This document shows, piece by piece, positions 20,895 to 64,000 of a DNA stretch of 64,000 nt. The translations under genes were made by a program, and so were the position numbers. The stretch's first letter is position 1. Each line of letters begins with the position of its first letter. This DNA is from Acidobacteriota bacterium (GTDB taxonomy: Bacteria > Acidobacteriota > CAIWXX01), in contig JBFMAF010000034.1 of assembly GCA_040755995.1 (NCBI GenBank), positions 1 to 64,000 of the forward strand. Direction: 5' to 3'. The notes beneath the pieces were generated by a model. It was not told the origin of the DNA. It did not search any database and was given only the letters and a program-made list of their open reading frames with translations.

Positions 20895-21728
20895 ATGCCG
20901 ATTGTGACGATTTCTAGGGGGACGATGAGCGGTGGGCACGCGCTTGCGGAATGCCTGGCTGCCAAGCTCAACGTGCCCAGTGTCGCCAGCGAGATCATTA
21001 CCGAAGCCGCCTCCAAGGTTGGGTCATCGGAAGAGGTTCTGACCAAGAAGCTCGAGAAGAGCCCCGGCGTGTGGGACCGGATGACCTCGGAACGGCGCGT
21101 GTACGTCGTGGCGATGCAGGCGGCACTGGCCGAGCACGCCGCGTCGGGAAACCTCGTGTACCACGGCCGCGCGGGGCACATGCTCTTGCGAGGCGTGCCG
21201 GCAGTGCTCAGGGTGAGGTTGATCGCACCCATGGACATGCGCATCCGGGCCGTCGTCGACAAGCACAAGATGGGCCGGCGTGAGGCAGAGGAGTACATTC
21301 ACCAGGTGGACGAAGACCGCGTGCGCTGGGCGAAGTTCATCTATGGGGTGGATCTTCGCGAGCCTGCGCTCTACGACATGGTCCTAAGCCTCGAAACCAT
21401 GTCGATTGCCACTGCGTGCACGGTCGTGGCCGAAGCGCTCCGGCAGCCCGAGTACGCGATCACCGGCGAGGTCAAGAAGAAGCTGGCCGACTTCGTTCTG
21501 GCCAGCAAAGTCCGACTGGCCCTGGCCACGCACGCAGCCAGCCGGCATCTGGAGCTCGACGTCCAGGCTGACGGCGGGAACGTGACCATCACCGGCGAGG
21601 CGCCGCAGCCGGCCATGCTGACGCACGTCAGCACGATGTTGGAGCAGGAGTTGACGGCGGTGGCGAGGGGTGTGGAGGGTGTCGAGAAGGTCGATCTGAA
21701 GGTGCGGCCATTCGACGCGTATCACTAG
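20895..21728 (+). CDS. Cytidylate-kinase-like protein with C-terminal BON domain (paralog 1)
   Basis: IVTISRGTMSGG, VYHGRAGH, LRVRLIAP, YDMVL; BON-like tail. Confidence 0.85.
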   Translation: MPIVTISRGTMSGGHALAECLAAKLNVPSVASEIITEAASKVGSSEEVLTKKLEKSPGVWDRMTSERRVYVVAMQAALAEHAASGNLVYHGRAGHMLLRGVPAVLRVRLIAPMDMRIRAVVDKHKMGRREAEEYIHQVDEDRVRWAKFIYGVDLREPALYDMVLSLETMSIATACTVVAEALRQPEYAITGEVKKKLADFVLASKVRLALATHAASRHLELDVQADGGNVTITGEAPQPAMLTHVSTMLEQELTAVARGVEGVEKVDLKVRPFDAYH

Positions 21729-50410: not shown

Positions 50411-51793
50411 CTACGAGGCGTGCTCAGCGCTTTCCCAGCCCGACTCCAGGTACCATTGCAGCACCTGCCGCAGCCGCACCACGTCGCCGACGACGATCAG
50501 CGCCGGGGGCTCCAGGTTCGCCGTCTTCACTCTCTCGACGATGTCGGCGAGGACGCCGGTCGCAGTGCGCTGCTGCGGTGTGGTCCCGCACTGAATCACC
50601 GCAGCCGGGCATTGCGGATCTTTGCCGTGGAGCAGGAGTTGCTGCACGATATGAGTGAGGTTGTGGAGGCCCATGAACACGACTAGCGTGCCGGTGCTCC
50701 TTGCGAGCCGATCCCATTGCACCGCAGGCGAGTCCTTCCCGCTTCGCTCGTGCCCGGTCACGAACGTGACCTCGGATGTGATGTCGCGGTGCGTCAGAGG
50801 GATGCCGGCATAAGCGGGCACTGCACTGCCGGCCGTGACTCCCGGAACGACCTCGAACGAAATCCCCGCCTCCGCGAGCGCCTGCGCCTCCTCGCCACCG
50901 CGCCCGAATACGAACGGGTCTCCGCCCTTCAGCCGTACGACCTTCCGGCCGGCGCGCGCTTCCCTGACGAGAATCGCGTTGATCTCCTCCTGCGGCAGGC
51001 TGTGAACCCCGTCGCGCTTGCCGACGTAAATGACCGTGGCATCTGGGCGGCACAGATCCAGCAGGCGTTTCTCGGCGAGAGCGTCGTACACGACGACGTC
51101 CGCCGTCTCCAGGCAGCGCTTCCCCTTTAGCGTGAGCAACCCCGGGTCGCCGGGGCCGGCGCCGACGAGGAACACCCGGCCTCGGTCCTGCGGATCAGAC
51201 TCCATCGAGGTCGCTGGCAGAACTGAGTCAACTATGTGCTCGAAGCGCTCCCGCTCCTCCGCGAGACCCCTTCCCTCGGCGCGCGACTGTTCTCGCAGAG
51301 CTCGCAGGCGATCCAGTGTCGTGGCGTACTCGGGTCCAAAGCTGTGCTCCAGTACCTCGCGAATGCGGCGCGCCATCGCGGGGCTCGCGCCACCGGTCGA
51401 GATGGCGATGGCTAGATCGCCCTGCCGCGCTACAGCCGGCGCGATGAAGTCGCAGAGTGCAGGCCGATCTGCTACGTTCAGCCAGACGCCGGTCGACTCA
51501 GCTTCCGACCGGACGGCCTCGTTCACCCCTGGGTCGTCGGTGGCGGCGAAGGCCAACCTGCAGCCGTGCAAATCGCCCGGCCGGTAGTGACGACGTTCGA
51601 TTGTAATGCGGCCCTGCTCCGCCCATCCCGCAATCGTACCGGTGACTTCGGGGCTGACGACGCACACCTGCGCTCCTGCTTCCAGCAGCGCCGCGACCTT
51701 GCGTTCGGCCACGACGCCGCCACCCACGACCAGGACGCGGTGACCATGGAGCTCCAGGAACACCGGGTAGTAGTGCGAAGGCGTGTGGCCCAT
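50411..51793 (-). CDS. cysG: Siroheme synthase (precorrin-2 dehydrogenase/ferrochelatase plus uroporphyrinogen-III methyltransferase)
   Basis: [52 protein letters not shown]. Confidence 0.93.
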
Positions 51794-51891
51794 ACCCGTC
51801 GGCTCTGACTTCCTGCTTCGCTACTGGAGCCCCTATGAAGCGGAAGAGAGCGAGGCGCCTGCATGGCGCCGCGCTCGATTCCGCTGGCTGT

Positions 51892-52212
51892 CTAGACGCA
51901 GCCGGTGGGTTTCGGAAGCCCGGCGACCTTGCAGGCTCCCTTGGCCGGACCTGACGGGAACAGTTCGTAGACCTTCTTCAGGTTGAAGCCGGTGTCCTTG
52001 CAGAGCTTGCGGATCATCGGGGCGATCTTGAACTCGAGGTAGTAGCCGCGCAGATAGCGCACGAGCTTCCAGTGGTCATCGGTCAACTCCGCGATGCCCT
52101 CTTCCTTCAGGGCCAGCTCCTTCGCGACCTCGTCGTCCCAGAGCTCCGGGTCCTGAATGAAACCGTCTTCGTCTACTTCGAGGGTCTTCCCACCCAGTTG
52201 GACTTGTGCCAT
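51892..52212 (-). CDS. dsrC: DsrC sulfur carrier protein
   Basis: C-terminus GPAKGACKVAGLPKPTGCV has both conserved Cys; dsr context. Confidence 0.95.
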   Translation of the reverse strand: MAQVQLGGKTLEVDEDGFIQDPELWDDEVAKELALKEEGIAELTDDHWKLVRYLRGYYLEFKIAPMIRKLCKDTGFNLKKVYELFPSGPAKGACKVAGLPKPTGCV

Positions 52213-52276
52213 GCTTATTCCCCTTTCCGTTGTGTCTTCGATTCAAGCGACGTTGCGACCAATCGATACTCCAGTT

Positions 52277-53764
52277 TCATAACGCCCTCGCATGCAGCCC
52301 GGCGAGGTCGTGCCTGCACGCGCCTTCGATGCAACCCATGCCTGCCGTGCCGGAGCTTCGCCTGCGGAAGGCGAGCGCCGTCCTCACAAGTGTCTCGGCC
52401 CATTCGGGGCAGCCGAGAGCATGGATGTGCAGGAAAGACGCCAGCACGTTCCTGTAGACGAGCCCGTCCCGTTCCCCGTCGAATCCATAACCTCTCTCGA
52501 CTCGAAAGGCCGTGCGGATGAGCTCGCTTTCGGCAGATCGAACGAATGAGTATCGGAACTCATGTCCCCGAATGACGGCTCCGATCGGAAAGTACGGGTT
52601 GGCCCGATCCGCCACCACGCAGGCGTATCCGTGTCCCATGGGACGCTTCCCCAGCTCGAAGGTCACGGGGACGACGCCCGTCATCGCATGGGCCACTCCG
52701 TCTACGACCAGGCTCTCGGCCAGGTAGATCAAGCCTCCGCATTCGGCGAACACCGGCATGCCTGACTCCACGGCCCGCCGGATCGATGCGCGGAAGCCGG
52801 TGTTGTTCTCCAGCGCGGCTGCGTGTGTCTCCGGGTAGCCTCCCCCGATGTACAGCGCGTCGATGGGCGGTAGCTGCCGGTCGGCCATGGAGTCAAGGAA
52901 AACGAGGTGAGCCCCGGCTCGCTCCAGTGCCTCCAGGTTCTCCGGGTAGTAGAACGTGAAGGCCGAGTCGCGGATGACCCCGATTCGCACGCTGGTCGTG
53001 GCCCAGGCATGCCCCTCTGCCTGGGCCGCGCGTGACCAGCGGAGTTCCGGCGCCTTTTGGGCGAGATCCATGACCGTGACCACATCCACGTGTTTGGCGA
53101 CGGCCTCGCGTGCCGCCTCTGTCGGCCGTTCGCGTTCCGGGTGCTCGGCCGGCGTGAGCAGCCCGAGGTGCCGTTCGGGAAGCGCGAGATCATGTATCTT
53201 CGGAACGCAGCCGAGCACAGGGACCCCACAAACCTGCTCGACTGCGCCCCGAATCGCATGTTCCTGCCGTTTCGTACCAGTGCGGTTGAGGATGACGCCC
53301 GCAATAGGCGCATCGGGATCCATCTTCTGGCAGCCGAGAACCATAGCCGCGACGGTCCTCGTCGCCCGTGTGCAGTCCACAACGAGGATCACGGGTGTCT
53401 GGAGCTCTCTGGCGAGCTCGGCCGAGCTGCCCTCGGCATTTGCGCCGAGCCCGTCGTGAAACCCGTGATTCGCCTCGACGATGACCAGATCCGCGCCCAC
53501 GCTCGATTCCGCCACGGACCGGCGGATCACGTCGCTCGACATCAGGTACGCGTCAAGGTTACGGCATGGTCGCCCCGCAGCCTCGCCGAGCCAGGCGGGA
53601 TCGATATAGTCCGGTCCCTTCTTGAACGGGGCGACAGCGAGGCCGCGGGAGCGCAGCTCGGCGATCAGACCTATGGTCAGAAACGTCTTGCCGCTTCCTC
53701 CGCGCAGCCCACTGATCATGAGCCGCGGGCAGTCCCGGGCCTCGCCCCGAACGCTGGGCGTCAT
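52277..53764 (-). CDS. dsrN: DsrN siroheme amidase (cobyrinate a,c-diamide synthase family)
   Basis: GGSGKT, FKKGPDYID, ERHLGL, AECGG, GHEF; located between dsrD and dsrC. Confidence 0.88.
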   Translation of the reverse strand: MTPSVRGEARDCPRLMISGLRGGSGKTFLTIGLIAELRSRGLAVAPFKKGPDYIDPAWLGEAAGRPCRNLDAYLMSSDVIRRSVAESSVGADLVIVEANHGFHDGLGANAEGSSAELARELQTPVILVVDCTRATRTVAAMVLGCQKMDPDAPIAGVILNRTGTKRQEHAIRGAVEQVCGVPVLGCVPKIHDLALPERHLGLLTPAEHPERERPTEAAREAVAKHVDVVTVMDLAQKAPELRWSRAAQAEGHAWATTSVRIGVIRDSAFTFYYPENLEALERAGAHLVFLDSMADRQLPPIDALYIGGGYPETHAAALENNTGFRASIRRAVESGMPVFAECGGLIYLAESLVVDGVAHAMTGVVPVTFELGKRPMGHGYACVVADRANPYFPIGAVIRGHEFRYSFVRSAESELIRTAFRVERGYGFDGERDGLVYRNVLASFLHIHALGCPEWAETLVRTALAFRRRSSGTAGMGCIEGACRHDLAGLHARAL

Positions 53765-53784
53765 TCCTTGTTCTCGATCTCGAA

Positions 53785-54033
53785 TCAGCTGCCCTTGGCC
53801 TCCGGTGGGATCTCCACGAAGCTACCGCCAAAGTAGGTGTAGACCAACCGCTCGGAGTCGACGAGCGAGCGAATCGCCTTCTTGCAGATGTCCTTGTTGC
53901 ACCGGTCCGGGCCAAAAAACTGGACCGCGGCCTTCTCGAGGTCCATCGGTTTCAGCTTCTTGACGCCGGTGGCATCCTTGACCATCCGGTACATCGCTTC
54001 GGCGACTTCTTCTATACTAACTGGTTCAGCCAT
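53785..54033 (-). CDS. dsrD: DsrD
   Basis: 82 aa directly after dsrB; KKLKP...CKKAIRSLVDS..LVYTYFGGS. Confidence 0.85.
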   Translation of the reverse strand: MAEPVSIEEVAEAMYRMVKDATGVKKLKPMDLEKAAVQFFGPDRCNKDICKKAIRSLVDSERLVYTYFGGSFVEIPPEAKGS

Positions 54034-54044
54034 GGATCAGCTCC

Positions 54045-55118
54045 CTAGTCCCTCCGGTGCGCGGACCGCTTGAAGGACAGTCCGGCGTACCGGAAGTCAT
54101 CGATGTGTTGCTTGGTGAACTGGATGCCCGTCTTCTGGAAGAAGCGCGGCCATCCGATGCGCTCGATCCATTCGCCCATGCGCTCGTACTTCCGCGCATC
54201 GGCCGCCCAGACTTCCACCAGGTTCTTTACGGCCCCCACGACCTCGGGCCACCGTGGTGGGTTGTTGGGCAGGAACGGGATTGCCAGCTTGGAGAAGCGC
54301 GGTTCGGATCTCGCGTTGCTGACCTTGCCGCCGACCCAGATCGAGACGCCGTCATTGAGCGGATCGTTGAGCGGCATGGCCGGGCAGACGGTGTAGCAGT
54401 TCGCGCAGAACATGCACTGCTCCTCGATTACCTCGACGGTCTCGACACCCTCGATCCGCTTCGGCCGGATCGCAGCCGTCGGGCAGGACGCCACGACCGA
54501 CGGGATCTCGCACATCTTCGGCAGCTTCTCTTTGTCGAGCTTCGGCGGACGGCGGTGGATGCCGAGGATGGCGATGTCCGAGCAGTGGACGGCACCGCAC
54601 ATGTTCAGGCAGCAGGCCAGAGCGAGGCGGAGCTTGCCCGGGAGTTTCATCGTTGTGAAGTACTCGATGAGCTCATCCATGACCGCCTTCACGACGCCCG
54701 ATGCGTCGGTAGCGGCCGAGTGGCAGTGCACCCAGCCCTGTGTGTGGACGATGTTGGATATCGAGTTACCGATCCCGCCGACGGGACGCCCAGCGGCCGT
54801 GAGATCCGCGACCAGCGGATCGATCCTGGCCGGGTCTGTGAGCAGGAATTCGACGTTGTTGCGGCTGGTGAATCTCAGGTGCCCGCCGCAGTACTTGTCG
54901 GCGAGGTCGCAGTAGAAGCGGATAGTATCGATGGCGATCAGCCGTGGCGACGCGGCGCGCACCGTGAACAGCTTGTCGCCGCTCTCGGCGACGTGCACCA
55001 TGACCCCCGGCTTAAGTACCTCGTGATAGGCCCACTTGCCGTAGTTCTTCTTCACGACGGGGGGCAGGAATTTCTCGTAGTGTGGCGGCCCAATATCAGT
55101 CAAGCGTTCCGTTGTCAT
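54045..55118 (-). CDS. dsrB: Dissimilatory sulfite reductase beta subunit
   Basis: [39 protein letters not shown]. Confidence 0.97.
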
Positions 55119-55142: not shown

Positions 55143-56351
55143 CTAGTTTCCAGCTTCCTCGTCCGCCACCTCGTACTCCTCGTAGAAGACGTACGGGTTG
55201 TCTCGCGGATAGGCGACCATTTCGGGGATCGGCTCGATGCCCACGGCTTCGAGGAAGTTGCCCATGCCTACGCGCTGGATGAACTCGCCGATGCGCTCGC
55301 GGTTCTTGCCTTCCTCGCTCCAGAGATCGAGCATCTTCGCCAACAGGTCCTTGAGCTCCTGATTAGGCAGTTCCATTTTTATGAATGGTATCAGCACGGA
55401 GGAGAGCATGGCACCCTGTACGATCGGCGCCTTGGAGCCGAGCAGGATTGTGGCACCGCGGTCGGCGCCGGGCTTCAGGGCCTTGGTCATCACGTTGATG
55501 CAGTGCATGCACTTCACGCAGAACTGGTTCTCGATCGCGAGGGCCTTGCCATCCCAGCTCATGCACTTGCTCGGGCAGAGGTCGCAGACGTCCTTCTGCA
55601 CGTCCAGGCCCTTCTTCGCGTATTCCTGAACGGCGTCCTGGTTGATCTGGATCGGTCCGCGCCAGGTTCCGATGATGCTCAGGTCCGCGCGCGCCACGGA
55701 AGCCACGCAGTCGTTCGGGCAGCCGGAGCACTTGATCTTGAACTTGTATGGGAATGCCGGCCGGTGGAGCTCATCCTGGAAGTGCATGGTGAAGTCGTAG
55801 CAGGTGGCCATCGTGTCGTAGCAGGCCCACTCGCAGCGGCCCATACCGACGCAGCAGCTGGGCGTCCGCACATCCGAGCCCGAGCCGCCCAGGTCGAATC
55901 CCGCATGTGTCAGCTCGGAGAACACGGTCTCGAGCTTGTCTGTGGAGGTCCCCAGCAGGATGATGTCACCTGTCGACCCGTGCATGTTGGTGATGCCGGA
56001 TCCGTATTTTTCCCAAATGTCGCAAACCTTGCGCAGGGCCTCTGACGTGTAGAACCATCCGGCGGGTTGGTTGATACGCATCGTGTGGAAATGCGCAATG
56101 TTGGGGAACTTGTCGGGCACATCAGAATACCGCCCGATGACGCCGCCTCCGTACCCGCGCACGCCGACTATGCCACCGTGCTTCCAGTGCCCGATCTTCT
56201 CGTTGTAGGAAAGCTCGAGGACACCCAGAAGATCTTTGGCTGGGTCGCTTCTAGCGGCGGCCAACTTGATCTCGCGCACGAAGCTCGGCCACTGGCCCTT
56301 CTCCAGCTCGCTCAGCTTCGGCGTTTCCGGCAGTTTCTTCGCTTCACCCAT
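55143..56351 (-). CDS. dsrA: Dissimilatory sulfite reductase alpha subunit
   Basis: WPSFV, HWKHGGIVGV.GYGGGVIGRY, HGSTGD, PYKFKIKCSGCPNDC. Confidence 0.97.
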   Translation of the reverse strand: MGEAKKLPETPKLSELEKGQWPSFVREIKLAAARSDPAKDLLGVLELSYNEKIGHWKHGGIVGVRGYGGGVIGRYSDVPDKFPNIAHFHTMRINQPAGWFYTSEALRKVCDIWEKYGSGITNMHGSTGDIILLGTSTDKLETVFSELTHAGFDLGGSGSDVRTPSCCVGMGRCEWACYDTMATCYDFTMHFQDELHRPAFPYKFKIKCSGCPNDCVASVARADLSIIGTWRGPIQINQDAVQEYAKKGLDVQKDVCDLCPSKCMSWDGKALAIENQFCVKCMHCINVMTKALKPGADRGATILLGSKAPIVQGAMLSSVLIPFIKMELPNQELKDLLAKMLDLWSEEGKNRERIGEFIQRVGMGNFLEAVGIEPIPEMVAYPRDNPYVFYEEYEVADEEAGN

Positions 56352-56398: not shown

Positions 56399-58072
56399 CT
56401 ACCGCATTTCAATGTAACCGCAGGGGCATTCCTCTGCGCACTTCTTGCAACCCTGACAGAATTCCAGCTTGAACTTGTAAGGCTCGTTCCTGTCCATCGG
56501 CTTCACGATGGCCTGGTCCTGGCAGTACTTCCAGCAGCTATCGCAAGTGAAGCACAGCCCGCAGCTCATGCACCGCTTGGCCTCGGCGATCGCCTGCTCC
56601 ATCGAGAGCCCCAGATTGACCTCGCCGTCCGGATCCGCGAACCGCTGCTCGACAGGTACCGCAGAGGCCTGCGCCCGCGCTATCCTCTGGTAGAAATCGA
56701 GCTTCATCTTGTTGTGCGCGATCGGAGGCGGCGGCACCTCATCTACGAACGGAATCCCACGCAGCCGATGATGGATAGTCTCGGCGGCGCGCCGCCCGTG
56801 GTATATAGCCGTGGTCACGATGCCGAGCTCCAGTATGTCGCCCCCCGCAAACGTGTTCGCAACGGCCGTCTCGCCGCGTTCGTCTACCGGAATCCAGCCC
56901 TTCGGGCCCTTCAACGAATCGAGCCCAGTCCAGATCGGTTCCTGGCTGATGGCCGGAATAATGAAAGACGCGGGAACGAAGAACTCTGATCCCTTGATCG
57001 GAACCGGGCGCCGGCGCCCGCTGGCATCAGGCTCCCCAAGCTCCATTCTCAAGCAAGTCATGCCCGACGCGCGTCCGTTCTCGGCGACGATGGCCACCGG
57101 AGCCGCGAGGAACTCGATCTTGATCCCTTCGTGCTCGGCGTCTTCAATCTCATGTTTGATTGCGGGCATCTCGGCAATCGTGCGGCGGTAAACGATAGTG
57201 ACGTTCGCGCCCAGCCGCTTGGATACGCGGGCGGCGTCGATTGCCGTGTCCCCACCTCCGATCACGATCACGTTGCCGCCGACCTCAATCCTCTCGCCGG
57301 TGTTTACACGATGGAGGAACTCGGCACCCGTGAGGACATTGGAGGAATCCTCGCCGGCCACCCCGAGTCTGGCTCCCTTGTGAGCACCGATCCCGACGAA
57401 GATCGCCTGGTGACTCTGGCGCACCTCGTCGAGTGAGATGTCCTTGCCGACCATCGTGTTGAGCCTCAGCTCTACACCCAGCGCGAGCAGCCGATCTATC
57501 TCGGCATCCAGGACGGCGTGAGGCAGGCGGTACTTGGGAATGCCATACCGCAACATCCCGCCCGCCTTCGGGAAGGATTCGAAGACCGTCACCGAATAGC
57601 CGCGACGTGCCAACTGGTACGCGCAGGAAAGGCCGGCTGGCCCGGAACCTATCACGGCGACTTTCTCAGACTGTCGTTCGTCGGTCAGTCGCTTCAGCTC
57701 CAGCTTGTTCTCCAGCGCGAAGTCCCCGATGGCTCGCTCGATGCAGTTGATCGACACGGGCCCATCCACATGCTCGCGGTTACACTGATCTTCGCACAGG
57801 TGAGGACAGACCCTGCCGCAGACGGCTGGGAGCGGGTTCTTCTCCGTCACGATGCCAAAAGCCTCTCGAAAGGCCTGGTCGTAGCTTTTCCCCTTGTTTT
57901 CGGCCTGCGCGATCGTCGTGATGATTCCACGAACGTCGGTCTGGTTCGGGCAACCGGTCGAGCATGGTGGCGTTTTGAGTACGTACAGGGGCCGGAGAGG
58001 CGATGTCTCCCGCGCACTGGTGCTCGCTCCCGTGCCCACACCCAACTTGCGGACTTTCTTGACGACGGCCAC
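56399..58072 (-). CDS. dsrL: DsrL iron-sulfur flavoprotein (short, YRR-containing form)
   Basis: SPLRP...PPCSTGCP, CGRVCPHLCE, GGGDTAID, IVYRR, C-terminal ferredoxin RCMSCGLC...CQGCKKCAEECPCGYIEM; directly before dsrA. Confidence 0.9.
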   Translation of the reverse strand: MAVVKKVRKLGVGTGASTSARETSPLRPLYVLKTPPCSTGCPNQTDVRGIITTIAQAENKGKSYDQAFREAFGIVTEKNPLPAVCGRVCPHLCEDQCNREHVDGPVSINCIERAIGDFALENKLELKRLTDERQSEKVAVIGSGPAGLSCAYQLARRGYSVTVFESFPKAGGMLRYGIPKYRLPHAVLDAEIDRLLALGVELRLNTMVGKDISLDEVRQSHQAIFVGIGAHKGARLGVAGEDSSNVLTGAEFLHRVNTGERIEVGGNVIVIGGGDTAIDAARVSKRLGANVTIVYRRTIAEMPAIKHEIEDAEHEGIKIEFLAAPVAIVAENGRASGMTCLRMELGEPDASGRRRPVPIKGSEFFVPASFIIPAISQEPIWTGLDSLKGPKGWIPVDERGETAVANTFAGGDILELGIVTTAIYHGRRAAETIHHRLRGIPFVDEVPPPPIAHNKMKLDFYQRIARAQASAVPVEQRFADPDGEVNLGLSMEQAIAEAKRCMSCGLCFTCDSCWKYCQDQAIVKPMDRNEPYKFKLEFCQGCKKCAEECPCGYIEMR

Positions 58073-58145
58073 TCTTGAAATCTCCTTTCCCTAGCACTGC
58101 CCATCCATCGGGAGGGGCATGAGTCTAGCCCAATCTGCTAGTTAG

Positions 58146-58161
58146 AGCAAAGACTTTGCCA
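58146..58161 (-). promoter_or_regulatory. sigma54 promoter of the dsrLABDNC-cysG operon
   Basis: Minus strand TGGCAAAGTCTTTGCT (GG-N10-GC), about 75 nt upstream of the dsrL start. Confidence 0.78.
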
Positions 58162-58225
58162 ACAGCCCGGCGTGTCAGAATTCCTTGAGAAAGCGGCTCG
58201 GATGTCCTTCCCCTGCAGCGGCGGC

Positions 58226-58243
58226 CATTACCGAAAGGTAACA
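58226..58243. promoter_or_regulatory. Palindromic operator/enhancer, copy 1
   Basis: CATTACC-GAAA-GGTAACA. Confidence 0.7.
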
Positions 58244-58328
58244 TTGGGCACCCAGGTGTCACCTCCGCGAAACCATACTCCCCGACCGTCATATTGCCGG
58301 CGAGACCCCGCTCTCTCAGCCCGATACT

Positions 58329-58550
58329 TCAGGTGGCCGGACGCCGGGGAATCCCGAGTATCTTCGTCTTCTTCCACAGCGTCTTCCGGCTGATCCCCAG
58401 CATCTGCGCGGCCTTGCCCCGGTTGCCGCCGGTCAGCTGCAGGACCGAGATGATATGCGCACGTTCGGCCTCCTCTCTGATGCGATCGAGCGGCCTGTGC
58501 GAAGCATCAACCTCCTTGTCGCCATTCCCCTGCTTCTTCTCGCTTTCCAT
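58329..58550 (-). CDS. Stand-alone Fis-type (HTH_8) DNA-binding protein
   Basis: LDRIREEAERAHIISVLQLTGGNRGKAAQMLGISRKTLWKK; no AAA+ domain seen upstream. Confidence 0.8.
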   Translation of the reverse strand: MESEKKQGNGDKEVDASHRPLDRIREEAERAHIISVLQLTGGNRGKAAQMLGISRKTLWKKTKILGIPRRPAT

Positions 58551-58614
58551 CCCTCAGTCCTGCGGCAGCTCCTGCCCGAGACGCTAGCTTCCTCCACGCA
58601 ATTCGGTCGCCTCA

Positions 58615-58630
58615 AGCAAGTACCTTGCCA
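58615..58630 (-). promoter_or_regulatory. sigma54 promoter of the Fis-HTH gene
   Basis: Minus strand TGGCAAGGTACTTGCT (GG-N10-GC). Confidence 0.72.
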
Positions 58631-58723
58631 TCCGCCTGCCTGCCCTCCGAACCGGTCGACGCCTGGGTCGCGGAACTGCGCAGACTTTGGGGCGGGCGCC
58701 TCACGCCCCCACATCCCCATCCG

Positions 58724-58741
58724 TGTTACCTTGAGGTAACA
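58724..58741. promoter_or_regulatory. Palindromic operator/enhancer, copy 2 (perfect)
   Basis: TGTTACC-TTGA-GGTAACA. Confidence 0.75.
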
Positions 58742-58772
58742 AATCGTCCACCGGACCGCTCAAGAAGTTGGC

Positions 58773-58788
58773 GGGCACGTCTCTTGCT
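58773..58788 (+). promoter_or_regulatory. sigma54 promoter of cytidylate-kinase-like paralog 2
   Basis: GGGCACGTCTCTTGCT (GG-N10-GC), about 50 nt before ATG 58840. Confidence 0.7.
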
Positions 58789-58839
58789 ATTGAATGGGCG
58801 GGTCAGGCACGGCTGGGTCTGGACCGTGGGAAGCTACAT

Positions 58840-59631
58840 ATGGCGATAGTTACGATCTCGCGCGGCACACTTAGTGGCGGCCGGCGGCTTGCGACATGCC
58901 TCGCGGCGGGGCTCGGGTATCAGGTGATCAGCCGCGAGCTGCTGGCGGAGGCGGCGCGGAGGTACGGAGTAGACGAGCAGAACCTGATCAGGGGTGTGGA
59001 GCAGCCGCCGTCGTTCTGGGAGCGGTTCCGGACAGACCGCCAGGTGTACCTGGAGGTCATCCGAGCCACTCTGTGCCAGCTTGTGAGACAGGACAATGTC
59101 GTCTACCACGGGCACGCCGGGCACATGCTGCTCCAGGGTGTCGAGCACGTGCTGCGGGTGCGGGTTATTGCGCCCATGGCCTACCGGGTGAGGGCTGCCA
59201 TGGCGACTCAGGGCCTGGGTGAGAAGGAGGCCGAGGCGTACATTCGCAGGAAGGACGAGGAGCGAGCTGCCTGGACGAGGTTTCTGCACGGGGTCGCCTG
59301 GGACGACCCCGGCCTCTACGACCTCACCTTCAACCTGGAAAACGTTACGGTCGAGGCAGCCTGCGAAGCGATCGTGAGGATGGTGGACCGGCCGGAATTC
59401 CGGATGACCGTCGACAGCATGAGACGCCTCGAGGACTTGTACGTCGCCAGCCATGTCCGGAGCATGCTCTTCCTCAACCCCAAGGTCGGGATGGCCGCAT
59501 CCAAGATCGACGTGACGGCTTCCTCAGGTGTCGTTCGACTCTCAGGGCTGCCACCCGGCGATGTGCTTGTGGCGGAGGCTGTCCGGACTTGCCGGCAGAT
59601 GCCGGAGGTCAAGGACGTGCAGGCTGGGTAA
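58840..59631 (+). CDS. Cytidylate-kinase-like protein with BON domain (paralog 2)
   Basis: IVTISRGTLSGG, VYHGHAGH, LRVRVIAP, YDLTFN. Confidence 0.85.
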   Translation: MAIVTISRGTLSGGRRLATCLAAGLGYQVISRELLAEAARRYGVDEQNLIRGVEQPPSFWERFRTDRQVYLEVIRATLCQLVRQDNVVYHGHAGHMLLQGVEHVLRVRVIAPMAYRVRAAMATQGLGEKEAEAYIRRKDEERAAWTRFLHGVAWDDPGLYDLTFNLENVTVEAACEAIVRMVDRPEFRMTVDSMRRLEDLYVASHVRSMLFLNPKVGMAASKIDVTASSGVVRLSGLPPGDVLVAEAVRTCRQMPEVKDVQAG

Positions 59632-59666
59632 GGGCGCTCGAAGACCAGAACTGCCGAGGCGGCCGA

Positions 59667-59684
59667 AGTTTCCAAGAGGTAACA
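59667..59684. promoter_or_regulatory. Palindromic operator/enhancer, copy 3
   Basis: AGTTTCC-AAGA-GGTAACA. Confidence 0.65.
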
Positions 59685-59801
59685 TCCCATTCCGCCGGAA
59701 TCGCACCGTGCCCGTCCGGCCTCGCGTGTATCTGCTTGATTTCTATCGACAATCTATGGGATCGCGGACTGGTACGGCCGTTGTCACCGACTTCAGTCCT
59801 C

Positions 59802-59817
59802 AGGCACAACTCTTGCT
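59802..59817 (+). promoter_or_regulatory. sigma54 promoter of the aprBA operon
   Basis: AGGCACAACTCTTGCT (GG-N10-GC). Confidence 0.72.
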
Positions 59818-60042
59818 AGCGTTCATGATGCGCCGATGGCGCGCGCGGTCGCGAGTCTGCGCATGTGGAAACCTTGGAAAGGGAGGTGGTGGGCGGAGAA
59901 AGAGACGAGATCGGAGAAACTCAAGAGGGTGTTCTCCCGGCGATCAGCACCGGTGAGAGCAGGAGTCAAACGCATTCTTTCTTAAGAAAGGGGCAAAGCG
60001 GTAACGGCGGCCAGGCCGCTTATCGCTGCGAGGAGGTAATTC

Positions 60043-60480
60043 ATGCCAAGTTACGTCAACCCGGACAAGTGTGATGGCTGCAAGGCGCTGGACAAGACCG
60101 CCTGCCAGTACATTTGCCCGAACGACCTCATGGTTTTGAACAAGGACACCATGAAGGCGTACAACCGGGAACCCGAGATGTGCTGGGAGTGCTACAACTG
60201 CGTGAAGATCTGCCCGACGCAGGCAGTCGCAGTTCGCGGCTACGCGGACTTCGTGCCGATGGGCGCGGACGTAGTGCCGTTGCGCTCTACTGACAACATA
60301 ATGTGGACGGTGAAGTTCCGCAACGGGAGCGTGAAGCGCTTCAAGTTCCCGATCCGGACCACTACAGAGGGTCAGGCAGTTCCATCCGGCGGCTGGGAAA
60401 CCGCGCCATCTATCGATGGCCCAACACTGTCCAGCGAACCCGAATCCCTTGGCCTGCCCGAAGTGTGGACCAAGAAGTAG
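60043..60480 (+). CDS. aprB: Adenylylsulfate reductase beta subunit
   Basis: MPSYVNPDKCDGCK...CQYICP...CWECYNCVKICP...RFKFPIRTT. Confidence 0.97.
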   Translation: MPSYVNPDKCDGCKALDKTACQYICPNDLMVLNKDTMKAYNREPEMCWECYNCVKICPTQAVAVRGYADFVPMGADVVPLRSTDNIMWTVKFRNGSVKRFKFPIRTTTEGQAVPSGGWETAPSIDGPTLSSEPESLGLPEVWTKK

Positions 60481-60493
60481 GTAGGAGGCGCAC

Positions 60494-62380
60494 GTGGAAG
60501 ATTTTAAAACCATTGAAGTAGAAACTGACCTATTGATCCTGGGCGGCGGCATGGCGGCATGCGGAGCCGCAGTCGAAGCGGCCCACTGGGCGAAGCAGAA
60601 CGGCCTGAAGGTCACGTTGGTCGACAAGGCCGCGATGGATCGCTCGGGCGCCGTTGCGATGGGCCTTTCCGCCATCAACCAGTACGTGGGCCTCAGGGAC
60701 GGCCAGAACACGATCAAGGACTATGTCGACTACGTCCGGAACGACCTCATGGGCATCACTCGTGAGGATCTCGTAGCCAACATCGCCCGTCACGTCGACT
60801 CGACGGTGCACCTGTTCGAGAAGTGGGGCCTGCCGATCTGGAAAGACGAGAAAGGTGCGTACGTGCACGAGGGCCGTTGGCAGCTCATGATCAACGGCGA
60901 GTCGTACAAGGTCGTCGTGGCCGAGGCGGCCAAGAACGCGATCGGCAAAGAGAACGTCTACGAGCGCGTGTTCATCGTCGGCCCGATCATGGACGGCGAC
61001 AGGTGTGCCGGCGCTTACGGGTTCTCGGTCCGCGATAATACGTTCTACGTGTTCAAGGCCAAGGCCGTCATCGCGACTATGGGCGGCGCAGTGCACGTGT
61101 TCAAGCCTCGGTCCTCCGGTGAAGGCCAGGGCCGTGCTTGGTATCCGCCGTGGAACGCCGGCGCGTCTGCTTACTTCACGCTGGCTGCCGGCGCCGAGAT
61201 GACCTGCCAGGAAGTGCGCTTCATCCCGGTCCGGTTCAAGGATGCGTACGGCCCGGTGGGTGCGTGGTTCCTGCTGTTCAAGTCGCGCGCAACCAACGCG
61301 TTGGGCGAGAACTACATGGAAACGCGCAAGCCCGAGCTCGACAAGTGGAAGCCGTACGGCCTCGTGAAGCCGACCCCGGCGAACCTCCGCAACTACCTCG
61401 GCATGCTCGATGTGATGGAGGGCAAGGGCCCGATCTACATGAGAACCGAGGAGGCCATCCAGAAGATCGCCGCGACATCCGGTGACGAGAAGGCCGCGAA
61501 GAAGAAGCTGAAGGAGCTCGATTCCGAGGCGTGGGAGGACTTCCTCGACATGACGATCTCCCAGGCCATCCTTTGGGCAGCCACCAACGTGTCGCCGGAG
61601 GAGAAGCCGTCGGAGATCGCGGCCGCTGAGCCGTATTTCATCGGCTCGCACTCGGGCGCCAGCGGCGCGTGGGTGAGCGGTCCCGAGGACATCCAGAACG
61701 ACACGTCCAAGAAGGACTACTTCTGGGGCTACGACCACATGTCCACGGTGAAAGGTCTGTTCTGCGCGGGTGACGCTTCCGGCGCATCCTCGCACAAGTT
61801 CTCCTCCGGCTCGCACGCCGAAGGCAGAATCGTAGGCAAGGCGGCGATGCGGTACATCCTGAAAGAGAAGCCGGCGGCGCCCGCCGTCACGGCTGATATC
61901 GTCGCGAAGCTGAAGGAGCAGACCTACAAGCCGCTGAAGAACTACGAGGACAACGTCAAACTCACGACGCAGAACGACGTCAACCCCAACTACATCCGTC
62001 CAAAGATGTTCATGATGCGCTTGCAGAAGATGATGGACGAGTACGCGGGCGGCGTGACGGCTCAGTTCACCACGTCCGAATCCATGCTCAAGAGGGCGCT
62101 CGAGCTCCTGGCCTACCTGAAGGAAGACTCGGACAAGCTCGGTGCCGCGGACCTGCACGAGCTGCAGAGGGCCTGGGAGAACTACCATCGTATGTTCCAG
62201 GCCGAAGCGCACGTGCGATCGATTCTCTTCCGCGAAGAGACCCGTTGGCCCGGGTACTACTTCCGCTCAGACAAGCCGAAGATGGACCCGAACTGGGAGT
62301 GCTTCGTCAACTGCATCTACGACGCCAAGACCGGCGATTGGAAGATGTTGAAGCGACCCATTCACCACATCTTCACGTAG
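60494..62380 (+). CDS. aprA: Adenylylsulfate reductase alpha subunit
   Basis: GGGMAACG, DKAAMDRSGAVAMGLSAIN, WQLMINGESYK, HKFSSGSHAEGR, REETRWPG. Confidence 0.97.
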   Translation: MEDFKTIEVETDLLILGGGMAACGAAVEAAHWAKQNGLKVTLVDKAAMDRSGAVAMGLSAINQYVGLRDGQNTIKDYVDYVRNDLMGITREDLVANIARHVDSTVHLFEKWGLPIWKDEKGAYVHEGRWQLMINGESYKVVVAEAAKNAIGKENVYERVFIVGPIMDGDRCAGAYGFSVRDNTFYVFKAKAVIATMGGAVHVFKPRSSGEGQGRAWYPPWNAGASAYFTLAAGAEMTCQEVRFIPVRFKDAYGPVGAWFLLFKSRATNALGENYMETRKPELDKWKPYGLVKPTPANLRNYLGMLDVMEGKGPIYMRTEEAIQKIAATSGDEKAAKKKLKELDSEAWEDFLDMTISQAILWAATNVSPEEKPSEIAAAEPYFIGSHSGASGAWVSGPEDIQNDTSKKDYFWGYDHMSTVKGLFCAGDASGASSHKFSSGSHAEGRIVGKAAMRYILKEKPAAPAVTADIVAKLKEQTYKPLKNYEDNVKLTTQNDVNPNYIRPKMFMMRLQKMMDEYAGGVTAQFTTSESMLKRALELLAYLKEDSDKLGAADLHELQRAWENYHRMFQAEAHVRSILFREETRWPGYYFRSDKPKMDPNWECFVNCIYDAKTGDWKMLKRPIHHIFT

Positions 62381-62463: not shown

Positions 62464-62790
62464 ATGGCTGAGACCAAGCACGACCTGAAGTGCCCCCACT
62501 GCGGCCAGATGCTGAGCCCGTTCGGGCTGCCCGAGAGCGGCGGTTGGGAGTTGCCATTTCAGTTGGCGTGTTTCAACGATGAGTGTTCTTATTACTCCCG
62601 GGGCTGGGGATGGATGTTCGAGCGGTTCGGGGTGAGGGCATCCTACCGCTACCGGGTGGATCCCGTTTCCGGACAGGCTTCCCCGCTTCCGGTGTGGTCC
62701 CCTACTGCACTGCGGGACCGAATTCTGGACGACGACACCCTCGAGAACATCCTTTCTACCCAGGACGTGATCCCTGAACAGAACTGCTAG
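62464..62790 (+). CDS. Small Cys-rich (zinc-finger-like) protein
   Basis: CPHC...CFNDEC.YY.RGW; RBS GAGGGA. Confidence 0.7.
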   Translation: MAETKHDLKCPHCGQMLSPFGLPESGGWELPFQLACFNDECSYYSRGWGWMFERFGVRASYRYRVDPVSGQASPLPVWSPTALRDRILDDDTLENILSTQDVIPEQNC

Positions 62791-62826
62791 CTCGGGCGCG
62801 TTCCGCGGGAACTGGTACATCTAGAC

Positions 62827-63633
62827 ATGAGCACACAAGCCGGCGCCCTGCCCGAGGCCCTGCGTAGCCAGAGGCAACTCGGCGCAGACGAGCGCTTCAC
62901 TTTCGCTTGCCATCCGGGTCTCCGTTGTTTCACGCGCTGCTGTGCGGACATCAACATCCTGCTGACGCCGCTCGACGTGCTGCGGCTCGCCCGGAGACGC
63001 GGGATGACGACCCGTGAGTTCCTTGACACCCATACTCTGACGCCGATAACGAAAGAGCTGCATCTACCCGTCGTCATGTTGCGCATGGGAGCCGACCCGG
63101 AGCGTCGCTGCCCATTTGTGCATCCGGAGACGGGTTGCACGGTCTACGATGAGCGGCCGTGGGCGTGCCGCATGTATCCGCTGGGCATGGCATTGCCTCC
63201 GGCGCGTGCCGGTGTAGAACCGCAGCCGCTTTACGTCATGTTCGAGGAGGACTTCTGCCTGGGACGTGGCGAGAAGCGGGAGTGGACGGTCAATCGATGG
63301 CGGAACGATCAAGGTATCGTGGCACACGACGAGATCGAGGCCGGGTTCCGCGAGATCGTCTCACACCCCTGGTTCATAGGCGGTCGGCAGCTGGACCCGA
63401 AGCGGATGGAGATGTACTTCACCGGCTGCTACGACCTCGACACTTTCCGGAGCTTCATCTTCGAGTCCACGTTTCTTCGTAGATTCGAGCTCGACGAAGC
63501 CCTGGTCGAGAAGCTCCGGACCGACGATATGGAACTATTCCGGTTTGCCTTTCGCTGGCTCCGCTACGCCCTCTTCGGCGAACCGACAATGAAGGTACGG
63601 CCTGATGCGCCGTCATCCCGGAGGAATAAATGA
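62827..63633 (+). CDS. YkgJ-family cysteine-cluster protein
   Basis: FACHPGLRCFTRCC, CPF, CTVYDERPWACRMYP. Confidence 0.85.
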   Translation: MSTQAGALPEALRSQRQLGADERFTFACHPGLRCFTRCCADINILLTPLDVLRLARRRGMTTREFLDTHTLTPITKELHLPVVMLRMGADPERRCPFVHPETGCTVYDERPWACRMYPLGMALPPARAGVEPQPLYVMFEEDFCLGRGEKREWTVNRWRNDQGIVAHDEIEAGFREIVSHPWFIGGRQLDPKRMEMYFTGCYDLDTFRSFIFESTFLRRFELDEALVEKLRTDDMELFRFAFRWLRYALFGEPTMKVRPDAPSSRRNK

Positions 63634-64000
63634 ACCCATCCAAACCGCTGCCCCTGCTCGTGCTCGGGGCAGGCATCGCCGGCATCACGGCAGCGCTGGA
63701 GGCCGCCGAGGCCGGCCGCGACGTGGTGCTGGTCGAGGCCGAGCCTGCCGTGGGCGGCCGCGTGCTTCGCAATCACCTCTACTTCCCGAAGCTCTGTCCC
63801 CCATCGTGCGGGATGGAGATCAACGTTCGCCGGCTCGAACGGAACCCACGCATCAGGGTCCTGGTCCGGACGAACGTCGGCAAGGCGACTTCGACTCCGG
63901 ACGGCTGGCTGGTGACGCTGAACCAGGCCCCCGCTTACATCAATGATCGCTGTACGATGTGCGGAGTCTGCAGCGAGGCATGCCCCGCCAAGGTCTCCGA
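63630..64000 (+). CDS. qmoA: QmoA (HdrA-like flavoprotein), truncated by the window end
   Basis: LVLGAGIAGITAALEAAEAG, GGRV...YFPKLCPPSCGMEIN, CTMCGVCSEACP; downstream of aprBA; ATGA overlap. Confidence 0.85.
   Translation, partial: MNPSKPLPLLVLGAGIAGITAALEAAEAGRDVVLVEAEPAVGGRVLRNHLYFPKLCPPSCGMEINVRRLERNPRIRVLVRTNVGKATSTPDGWLVTLNQAPAYINDRCTMCGVCSEACPAKVS

Follow-up and report, generated by a model that had tools for sequence, protein, structure and literature searches.

Sigma54 promoters require an enhancer-binding activator. A sigma54 two-component system of Acidithiobacillus, TspSR, governs the sox genes, that is, sulfur oxidation and not dsr or apr, and an old report reportedly noted a possible sigma54 promoter before dsrC of Desulfovibrio vulgaris. 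The closest described systems are AioXSR and ArxXSR, in which AioR acts with RpoN on arsenite oxidase. The AioR consensus is GTT-N10-AAC, with a DNase footprint (PMC5335332; also PMC6011840 and PMC5908839). For D. vulgaris, the main text of the sigma54 regulome study describes 37 activators, each with its own palindrome, and never mentions dsr or apr (PMC4641369). A sequence-only reading of the present locus held that these genes are known in Desulfovibrio mainly as Rex-regulated. In a D. alaskensis rex mutant, this is true of qmo and sat, which were de-repressed, and not of dsrABD and apsAB, and the effects stayed below twofold (PMC4045070). No account of sigma54- or AioR-type control of dsr or apr was found in the literature searched, which did not include subscription journals, RegPrecise or supplements. 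Within the texts that were term-searched, dsr is absent from PMC12316311, and sigma and promoter are absent from PMC8528874 and PMC10564751.

The window, the whole stretch of 64,000 nucleotides that was analysed, carries a dsr unit and an apr unit on either side of a divergent control region. The features of this region, with two groups of genes located further along the same contig (C34), are the following:

50411..54033, reverse strand: dsrD-like ORF, dsrN/CobB-like gene, dsrC and cysG (the last two by NCBIfam)
53785-54033, reverse strand: the dsrD-like ORF, by position and homology; no DsrD family match in Pfam
54045-55118, reverse strand: dsrB (TIGR02066 above cut-off)
55143-56351, reverse strand: dsrA (TIGR02064 above cut-off)
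56399..58072, reverse strand: dsrL, NAD(P)H oxidoreductase, first in the dsr unit, by position and homology; best family match PRK12771
58146..58161, reverse strand: predicted sigma54 -24/-12 box of the dsrL-dsrA-dsrB-dsrD-dsrN-dsrC-cysG unit, by sequence match and homologous loci
58227..58242, no strand: candidate proximal enhancer, a palindrome with 1 mismatch, 81 bp to the dsrL box
58258..58273, no strand: weaker, distal copy of the palindrome (2 mismatches) at a distance of 31 bp from the proximal one, as in homologous loci
58329..58550, reverse strand: gene of a 73-aa stand-alone Fis-type HTH protein (mini-HTH) with an AioR-type recognition helix and neither an AAA+ nor a receiver domain (Pfam)
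58615..58630, reverse strand: predicted sigma54 box of the mini-HTH gene, by sequence match and near-identical boxes with palindromes elsewhere
58725..58740, no strand: perfect palindrome, 110 bp to the mini-HTH box and 48 bp to the kinase-like box
58773..58788, forward strand: predicted sigma54 box of the cytidylate-kinase-like gene, the least supported of the four
58840..59631, forward strand: gene of a cytidylate-kinase-like/BON protein (Pfam), preceding aprB in 12 of 30 related loci
59668..59683, no strand: palindrome with 1 mismatch, 134 bp to the aprB box
59729..59741, reverse strand: weak IHF-like site, one mismatch from the consensus, located between the palindrome and the aprB box
59802..59817, forward strand: predicted sigma54 box of the aprBA-qmoABC-sat unit, by sequence match and aprB-locus conservation
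60043..62380, forward strand: aprB and aprA (TIGR02060 and TIGR02061 above cut-off)
62464..64000, forward strand: two conserved ORFs, then the first part of qmoA, past aprA
contig 64887-69637: qmoB, qmoC and sat, downstream and outside the window
C34:113716-116584 (L237): response regulator and CxxCH kinase pair

Genes related to those listed occur elsewhere. Further cytidylate-kinase-like paralogues are found at 20895-21728 of the window and on contigs C26, C16 and C37, and the family recurs beside apr and dsr genes, and under the palindrome-plus-box module, in other genomes. A second sat, accompanied by qmoC-like and sat-like fragments amid transposase-like and toxin-antitoxin-like ORFs, lies at C34:83589-91216, 15-20 kb past the main sat. 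Two tandem DsrC/TusE-like genes (C25:2996-3640) are remote from the dsr cluster.

The four boxes lie at the positions and on the strands proposed by the sequence-only reading, each aimed at its own gene, and all four contain GG-N10-GC. Each has a single mismatch to TGGCAC-N5-TTGCW that leaves GG and GC unaltered, and they are located 52-226 nt upstream of dsrL, the Fis-type HTH gene, the kinase-like gene and aprB. In region 58073-60042, which was picked post hoc, 2000 dinucleotide shuffles yielded 0.047 boxes on average and never more than 2, compared with the four observed. Two-mismatch matches in the whole window amount to 26, with 24 expected. One-mismatch boxes are not enriched genome-wide: a 1.27-Mb sample of the genome holds 25, against 33 in one shuffle, and this tally was set aside as uninformative. 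A lone box is weak evidence, and the claim rests on the clustering, orientation and conservation of the boxes. A search of 57900-60100 for sigma70-type promoters found none. At 419-434 of the window, a perfect sigma54 box without palindrome stands ahead of an ABC-permease-like gene; it belongs to another activator.

A palindrome, GTTAC-N6-GTAAC, overlooked in the sequence-only reading, recurs at 58227, 58725 and 59668, three copies compared with a shuffle mean of 0.014. The 7.7-Mb genome was scanned with a matrix trained on 91 sites, all of them from other genomes. The three palindromes of the window rank 1-3 (23.0, 17.6 and 16.9 bits), the third only narrowly above the next match in the genome (16.3 bits), and the exact sequence has its sole genome copy at 58725..58740. 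Two further palindrome-plus-box pairs (C25 and C43) are weaker and at unrelated sites; the reversed control gave 3. The distance of ~80-150 bp expected between activator site and promoter agrees with the 81, 110 and 134 bp measured here, and the 48 bp before the kinase-like box are short. This last promoter has a box in five of ten usable syntenic loci, a count that leaves out L248 and L251 as well as the paralogous L135, L239 and L243 (33-35% identity), which carry box and palindrome. The genome contains five HU/IHF-family genes; the case for an involvement of IHF is weak, consisting of one site with one mismatch to the consensus.

The boxes are kept before orthologous dsrL and aprB genes. 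Among 88 dsrA loci (8 from relatives and the best 80 of 600 GTDB matches), the palindrome-plus-box module is present in seven, whose labels are all Acidobacteria or Thermoanaerobaculia; the reversed control gave one. A second Acidobacteriota class, the class of G066 with 251 genomes, is likely Thermoanaerobaculia, judging from the label of L071. There, the exact pattern is found in 40 of 46 dsrA-positive genomes, which are kin and three of which supplied the pattern, versus none of 205 dsrA-negative ones (reversed control 0). In 30 of these 40 genomes one match each was examined, and these matches lie before dsrA, yeiH-like, dsrT, dsrK-like and other genes; a yeiH-like gene often leads the dsrA unit in this class. 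For aprB, 40 matches were obtained in 50 genomes of the class and 30 loci were examined. Every one of these 30 has a box no more than 300 bp away (27 with at most one mismatch; wrong-strand control 0), 29 have the palindrome and 12 have the kinase-like gene immediately upstream. Among 29 aprB loci of other lineages, one has a two-mismatch box and none the palindrome.

The regulon appears lineage-restricted. In a 401-genome sample of the phylum, the exact pattern occurs in six genomes (five of 41 dsrA-positive ones and one with the pattern before dsrT), and 36 of the 41 do not have it in a search that overlooks modules with other spacings. The other dsrA-positive genome of the host's family has no module at its dsrA locus. 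In family f19, aprB has by eye a sigma70-like promoter. A conserved GTGA-N4-TCACCCAAGA element, another regulator's putative site, stands just ahead of this promoter, and apr, qmo and dsr form a single operon (L013, L015 and L016). Family f8 (L017, L019 and L020) encodes a PAS-type sigma54 activator between qmoC and dsrC. It was considered as the activator, being beside dsrC in three of three genomes, and rejected for this regulon: by eye, the promoters of aprB and dsrC are sigma70-like, and there is no module. Each of these two promoters is preceded by a similar AACAATAT..GCAACA motif.

The mini-HTH protein fails the cut-offs of the Fis families (30.8 bits against 99 for NF001659, 29.1 bits against 122 for NF002517), and the best PDB matches of its family are Fis, ZraR and NtrC domains. 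Its 68 relatives are 45-128 aa long, with an invariant recognition helix in the 59 that were aligned. Where their labels name a lineage, it is Rokubacteria, Methylomirabilales, NC10, Chloroflexi or Deltaproteobacteria. In the 18 best of 80 metagenome loci, two pairs of which look identical, the genes are stand-alone and 13 of them are located directly before dsrL. A palindrome lies just past the gene in 17 of these best 18, and in 12 the stop codon of the gene is the TAA of the distal palindrome. In the same best 18 of 80, a box at 78-82 bp after the proximal palindrome is intact in 11, degenerate in one and absent from six, four of these six being before dsrL. The order mini-HTH, palindromes, box at 78-82 bp and dsrL is repeated on metagenome contigs. 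In seven of the best 18, a box closely resembling that of the mini-HTH gene in the window, accompanied by palindromes, also lies upstream: in six cases ~2 kb off, before a gene that is of the YeiH family where tested, and once directly before the mini gene, as in the window. In L163 and L164, which may be rearranged, non-dsr genes follow the mini-HTH gene and palindromes, and there is no box. At the seven dsrA loci of the second class, a separate mini gene was not detected.

All three second-class dsr clusters that are long enough end with a PhnD-like binding protein, a sensor kinase of the sCache type and a receiver-AAA+-HTH regulator (X-S-R trio: L108 9146-12820, L109 10405-14113 and L110 7897-11691). 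The binding protein, located at 10744-11691 in L110, has its best matches in PtxB and ArrX and is a candidate sulfur-oxyanion sensor. With six candidates per genome scored at E 1e-140, the dsr-linked activator has an orthologue in 44 of the 46 dsrA-positive genomes of the second class versus none of the 205 others. Its recognition helix, SRKTLW, is common to AioR, the C34 regulator and the 73-aa mini-HTH. A plasmid aioXSR-aioBA cluster likewise combines this helix with an exact palindrome 100 bp before a box. Sequence identity between the activators and a plasmid AioR is 36-40%. In an unfinished quick tree, which contained AioR-like metagenome rows and no named AioR, the clades are separate and well supported and join at 94% SH-aLRT. 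The top plasmid match of the dsr-linked activator turned out to be an unrelated locus and was discarded. At 62 further loci with an SRKTLW helix, the exact palindrome is found in 32 (control 0), and the targets include Arr-, Ttr- and Fdh-like operons.

In the host, one of 41 activators has the SRKTLW helix, the response regulator at C34:113716-115053. It is encoded 54 kb from aprB on the same contig, and the adjoining kinase has a periplasmic CxxCH haem-c motif. This regulator shares 44-45% identity with the dsr-linked regulators and falls in a different clade of the quick tree; it is a candidate activator and, on this comparison, not their orthologue. Its own orthologues (69-75%) are often followed by two palindromes, a box and an operon for formate dehydrogenase-N, and no close one was found in five genomes without the module (best 48%). 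The alpha subunit of formate dehydrogenase-N appears as two consecutive ORFs in L212 (6450-9461), L188 and L201, presumably as expected with an in-frame selenocysteine codon. The host genome has no orthologue of the dsr-linked activator, and tblastn with one PhnD-like query gave no match to an X gene.

With regard to the extent of the regulon, the 7.7-Mb host genome, 99.8% complete, encodes rpoN with its RpoN box, and 41 strong activator-domain matches were obtained. The Rex N-terminal domain (PF06971) was not found in this genome; the control matched in 7 of 14 genomes. Neither dsrTMKJOP, on contig C37, nor yeiH (39908) has a box or palindrome, and both have sigma70-like promoters. Here the regulon would consist of the soluble core and Qmo, without DsrMKJOP, unlike the second class, in which dsrT and yeiH fall under the module. 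The proposal that the sulfate-respiration genes form an RpoN regulon is supported for the dsrL and aprB units, whose boxes are conserved, and is not supported for dsrTMKJOP and yeiH. Activator dependence of a dsr/apr module agrees with rpoN, the 41 activators and the conserved boxes, and would not extend to the part of the pathway with sigma70-like promoters. The suggested fit with a facultative sulfate reducer is consistent with the haem-copper oxidase subunit I and bd oxidase subunit I encoded by the host; the arrangement is no general mark of such organisms, 36 of 41 dsrA-positive genomes lacking the pattern.

Taken together, control of dsr and apr appears to be a real, lineage-restricted AioR-type sigma54 regulon. 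We consider it likely that sigma54 polymerase would transcribe the four boxed units once the palindromes are occupied by an AioR-type activator. The sequence itself shows the boxes, the palindromes and their spacings, all of which are conserved. The palindrome is very likely the activator site, as it matches the published AioR consensus and co-occurs with SRKTLW-helix activators. The activator in this host would probably be the C34 regulator, chosen because it has the sole SRKTLW helix among the 41, phosphorylated by the adjoining CxxCH kinase; in the second class, the X-S-R trio within the dsr cluster would serve as activator system. The input is likely a redox or gas cue here and would be an oxyanion in the X-S-R version. 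Isolated NtrC-type DNA-binding domains can repress. The mini-HTH, which has no ATPase and would itself be expressed from one of the activated promoters, might occupy the palindromes in competition with the activator and weaken the response, a role to which we give slightly less than an even chance.

The main rival, a positive role of the mini-HTH at the same sigma54 promoters by recruiting an activator without HTH or by bending DNA like Fis, seems unlikely. Two host activators (C21:4478 and C32:114509) do end without an evident HTH, Fis is the best solved-structure match, and linkage between the mini gene and dsrL is tight. However, the same contig encodes a full-length activator that shares the helix and is the best full-length match of the mini-HTH family in the host (71 bits, 41 for the next), and the second-class module has a full-length activator with no mini gene detected at seven dsrA loci. 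The module could also be a relic of a horizontally gained dsr/apr island that lost its X-S-R activator, leaving boxes inert for regulation. The missing X gene and activator orthologue, the sigma70-like promoters of dsrTMKJOP and yeiH and the same-family dsrA locus without module would agree with such a loss. We nevertheless hold it to be very unlikely: all four boxes and all three palindromes have stayed intact and keep a conserved spacing, while the sequence between them has diverged, no sigma70 promoter has taken their place, and the genome encodes an activator whose helix matches.

That the boxes arose by chance, and that the palindrome is the site of an unrelated repressor of sigma70 promoters, is scarcely credible. 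The absence of genome-wide enrichment of one-mismatch boxes is what such a reading would expect, but the distance from palindrome to box is fixed across many genomes and gene orders, and the aprB box is found in 30 of 30 loci versus one of 29 elsewhere; conservation has already largely refuted it.

The preferred reading, activation of the boxed units by an AioR-type regulator, could be extended to several uncultured lineages, among them two classes of Acidobacteriota and, judging from protein labels, Rokubacteria and NC10. These sulfate reducers would run core dsr/apr by an AioR-type sigma54 switch, fed by an X-S-R oxyanion sensor (perhaps for sulfite or sulfate) or by a haem-c kinase, with the widespread stand-alone HTH, the stop codon of which is often part of the enhancer, as a dedicated feedback anti-activator; in this full form, the proposal is doubtful. 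The proposed circuit, which comprises the promoters, a site of 16 bp, candidates for the activator, sensors of two kinds and a possible anti-activator, speaks to how uncultured, probably facultative sulfate reducers activate sulfate respiration. The motif would flag dsr-bearing genomes with a switchable pathway, which bears on the practice of equating dsr gene counts with activity.

In comparison with known systems, the D. vulgaris sigma54 regulome is similar in its many activators, 37 there and 41 here. The Rex regulon of Desulfovibrio is also predicted to place a regulator over core sulfate-reduction genes, but Rex is a repressor, and no Rex domain was found in the host. Like Fis and isolated NtrC-type DNA-binding domains, the mini-HTH is a small dimeric HTH without ATPase; unlike Fis, it is shorter, has the AioR-type helix and is located within the regulon that it would affect. 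With AioXSR and ArxXSR, the host system shares the sigma54 box, a palindrome of the GTT-N10-AAC class ~100 bp upstream and a receiver-AAA+-HTH activator with the SRKTLW helix, to which the second class adds the X-S-R trio, its X being closer to PtxB and ArrX than to AioX. In contrast, the targets are dsr and apr-qmo-sat, with no arsenite oxidase or arsenate reductase target adjoining, and the host has a CxxCH kinase, no X gene and an added stand-alone HTH. The system thus seems to resemble AioR-RpoN control and, because it has no X gene and different targets, would not be a member of AioXSR in this genome.
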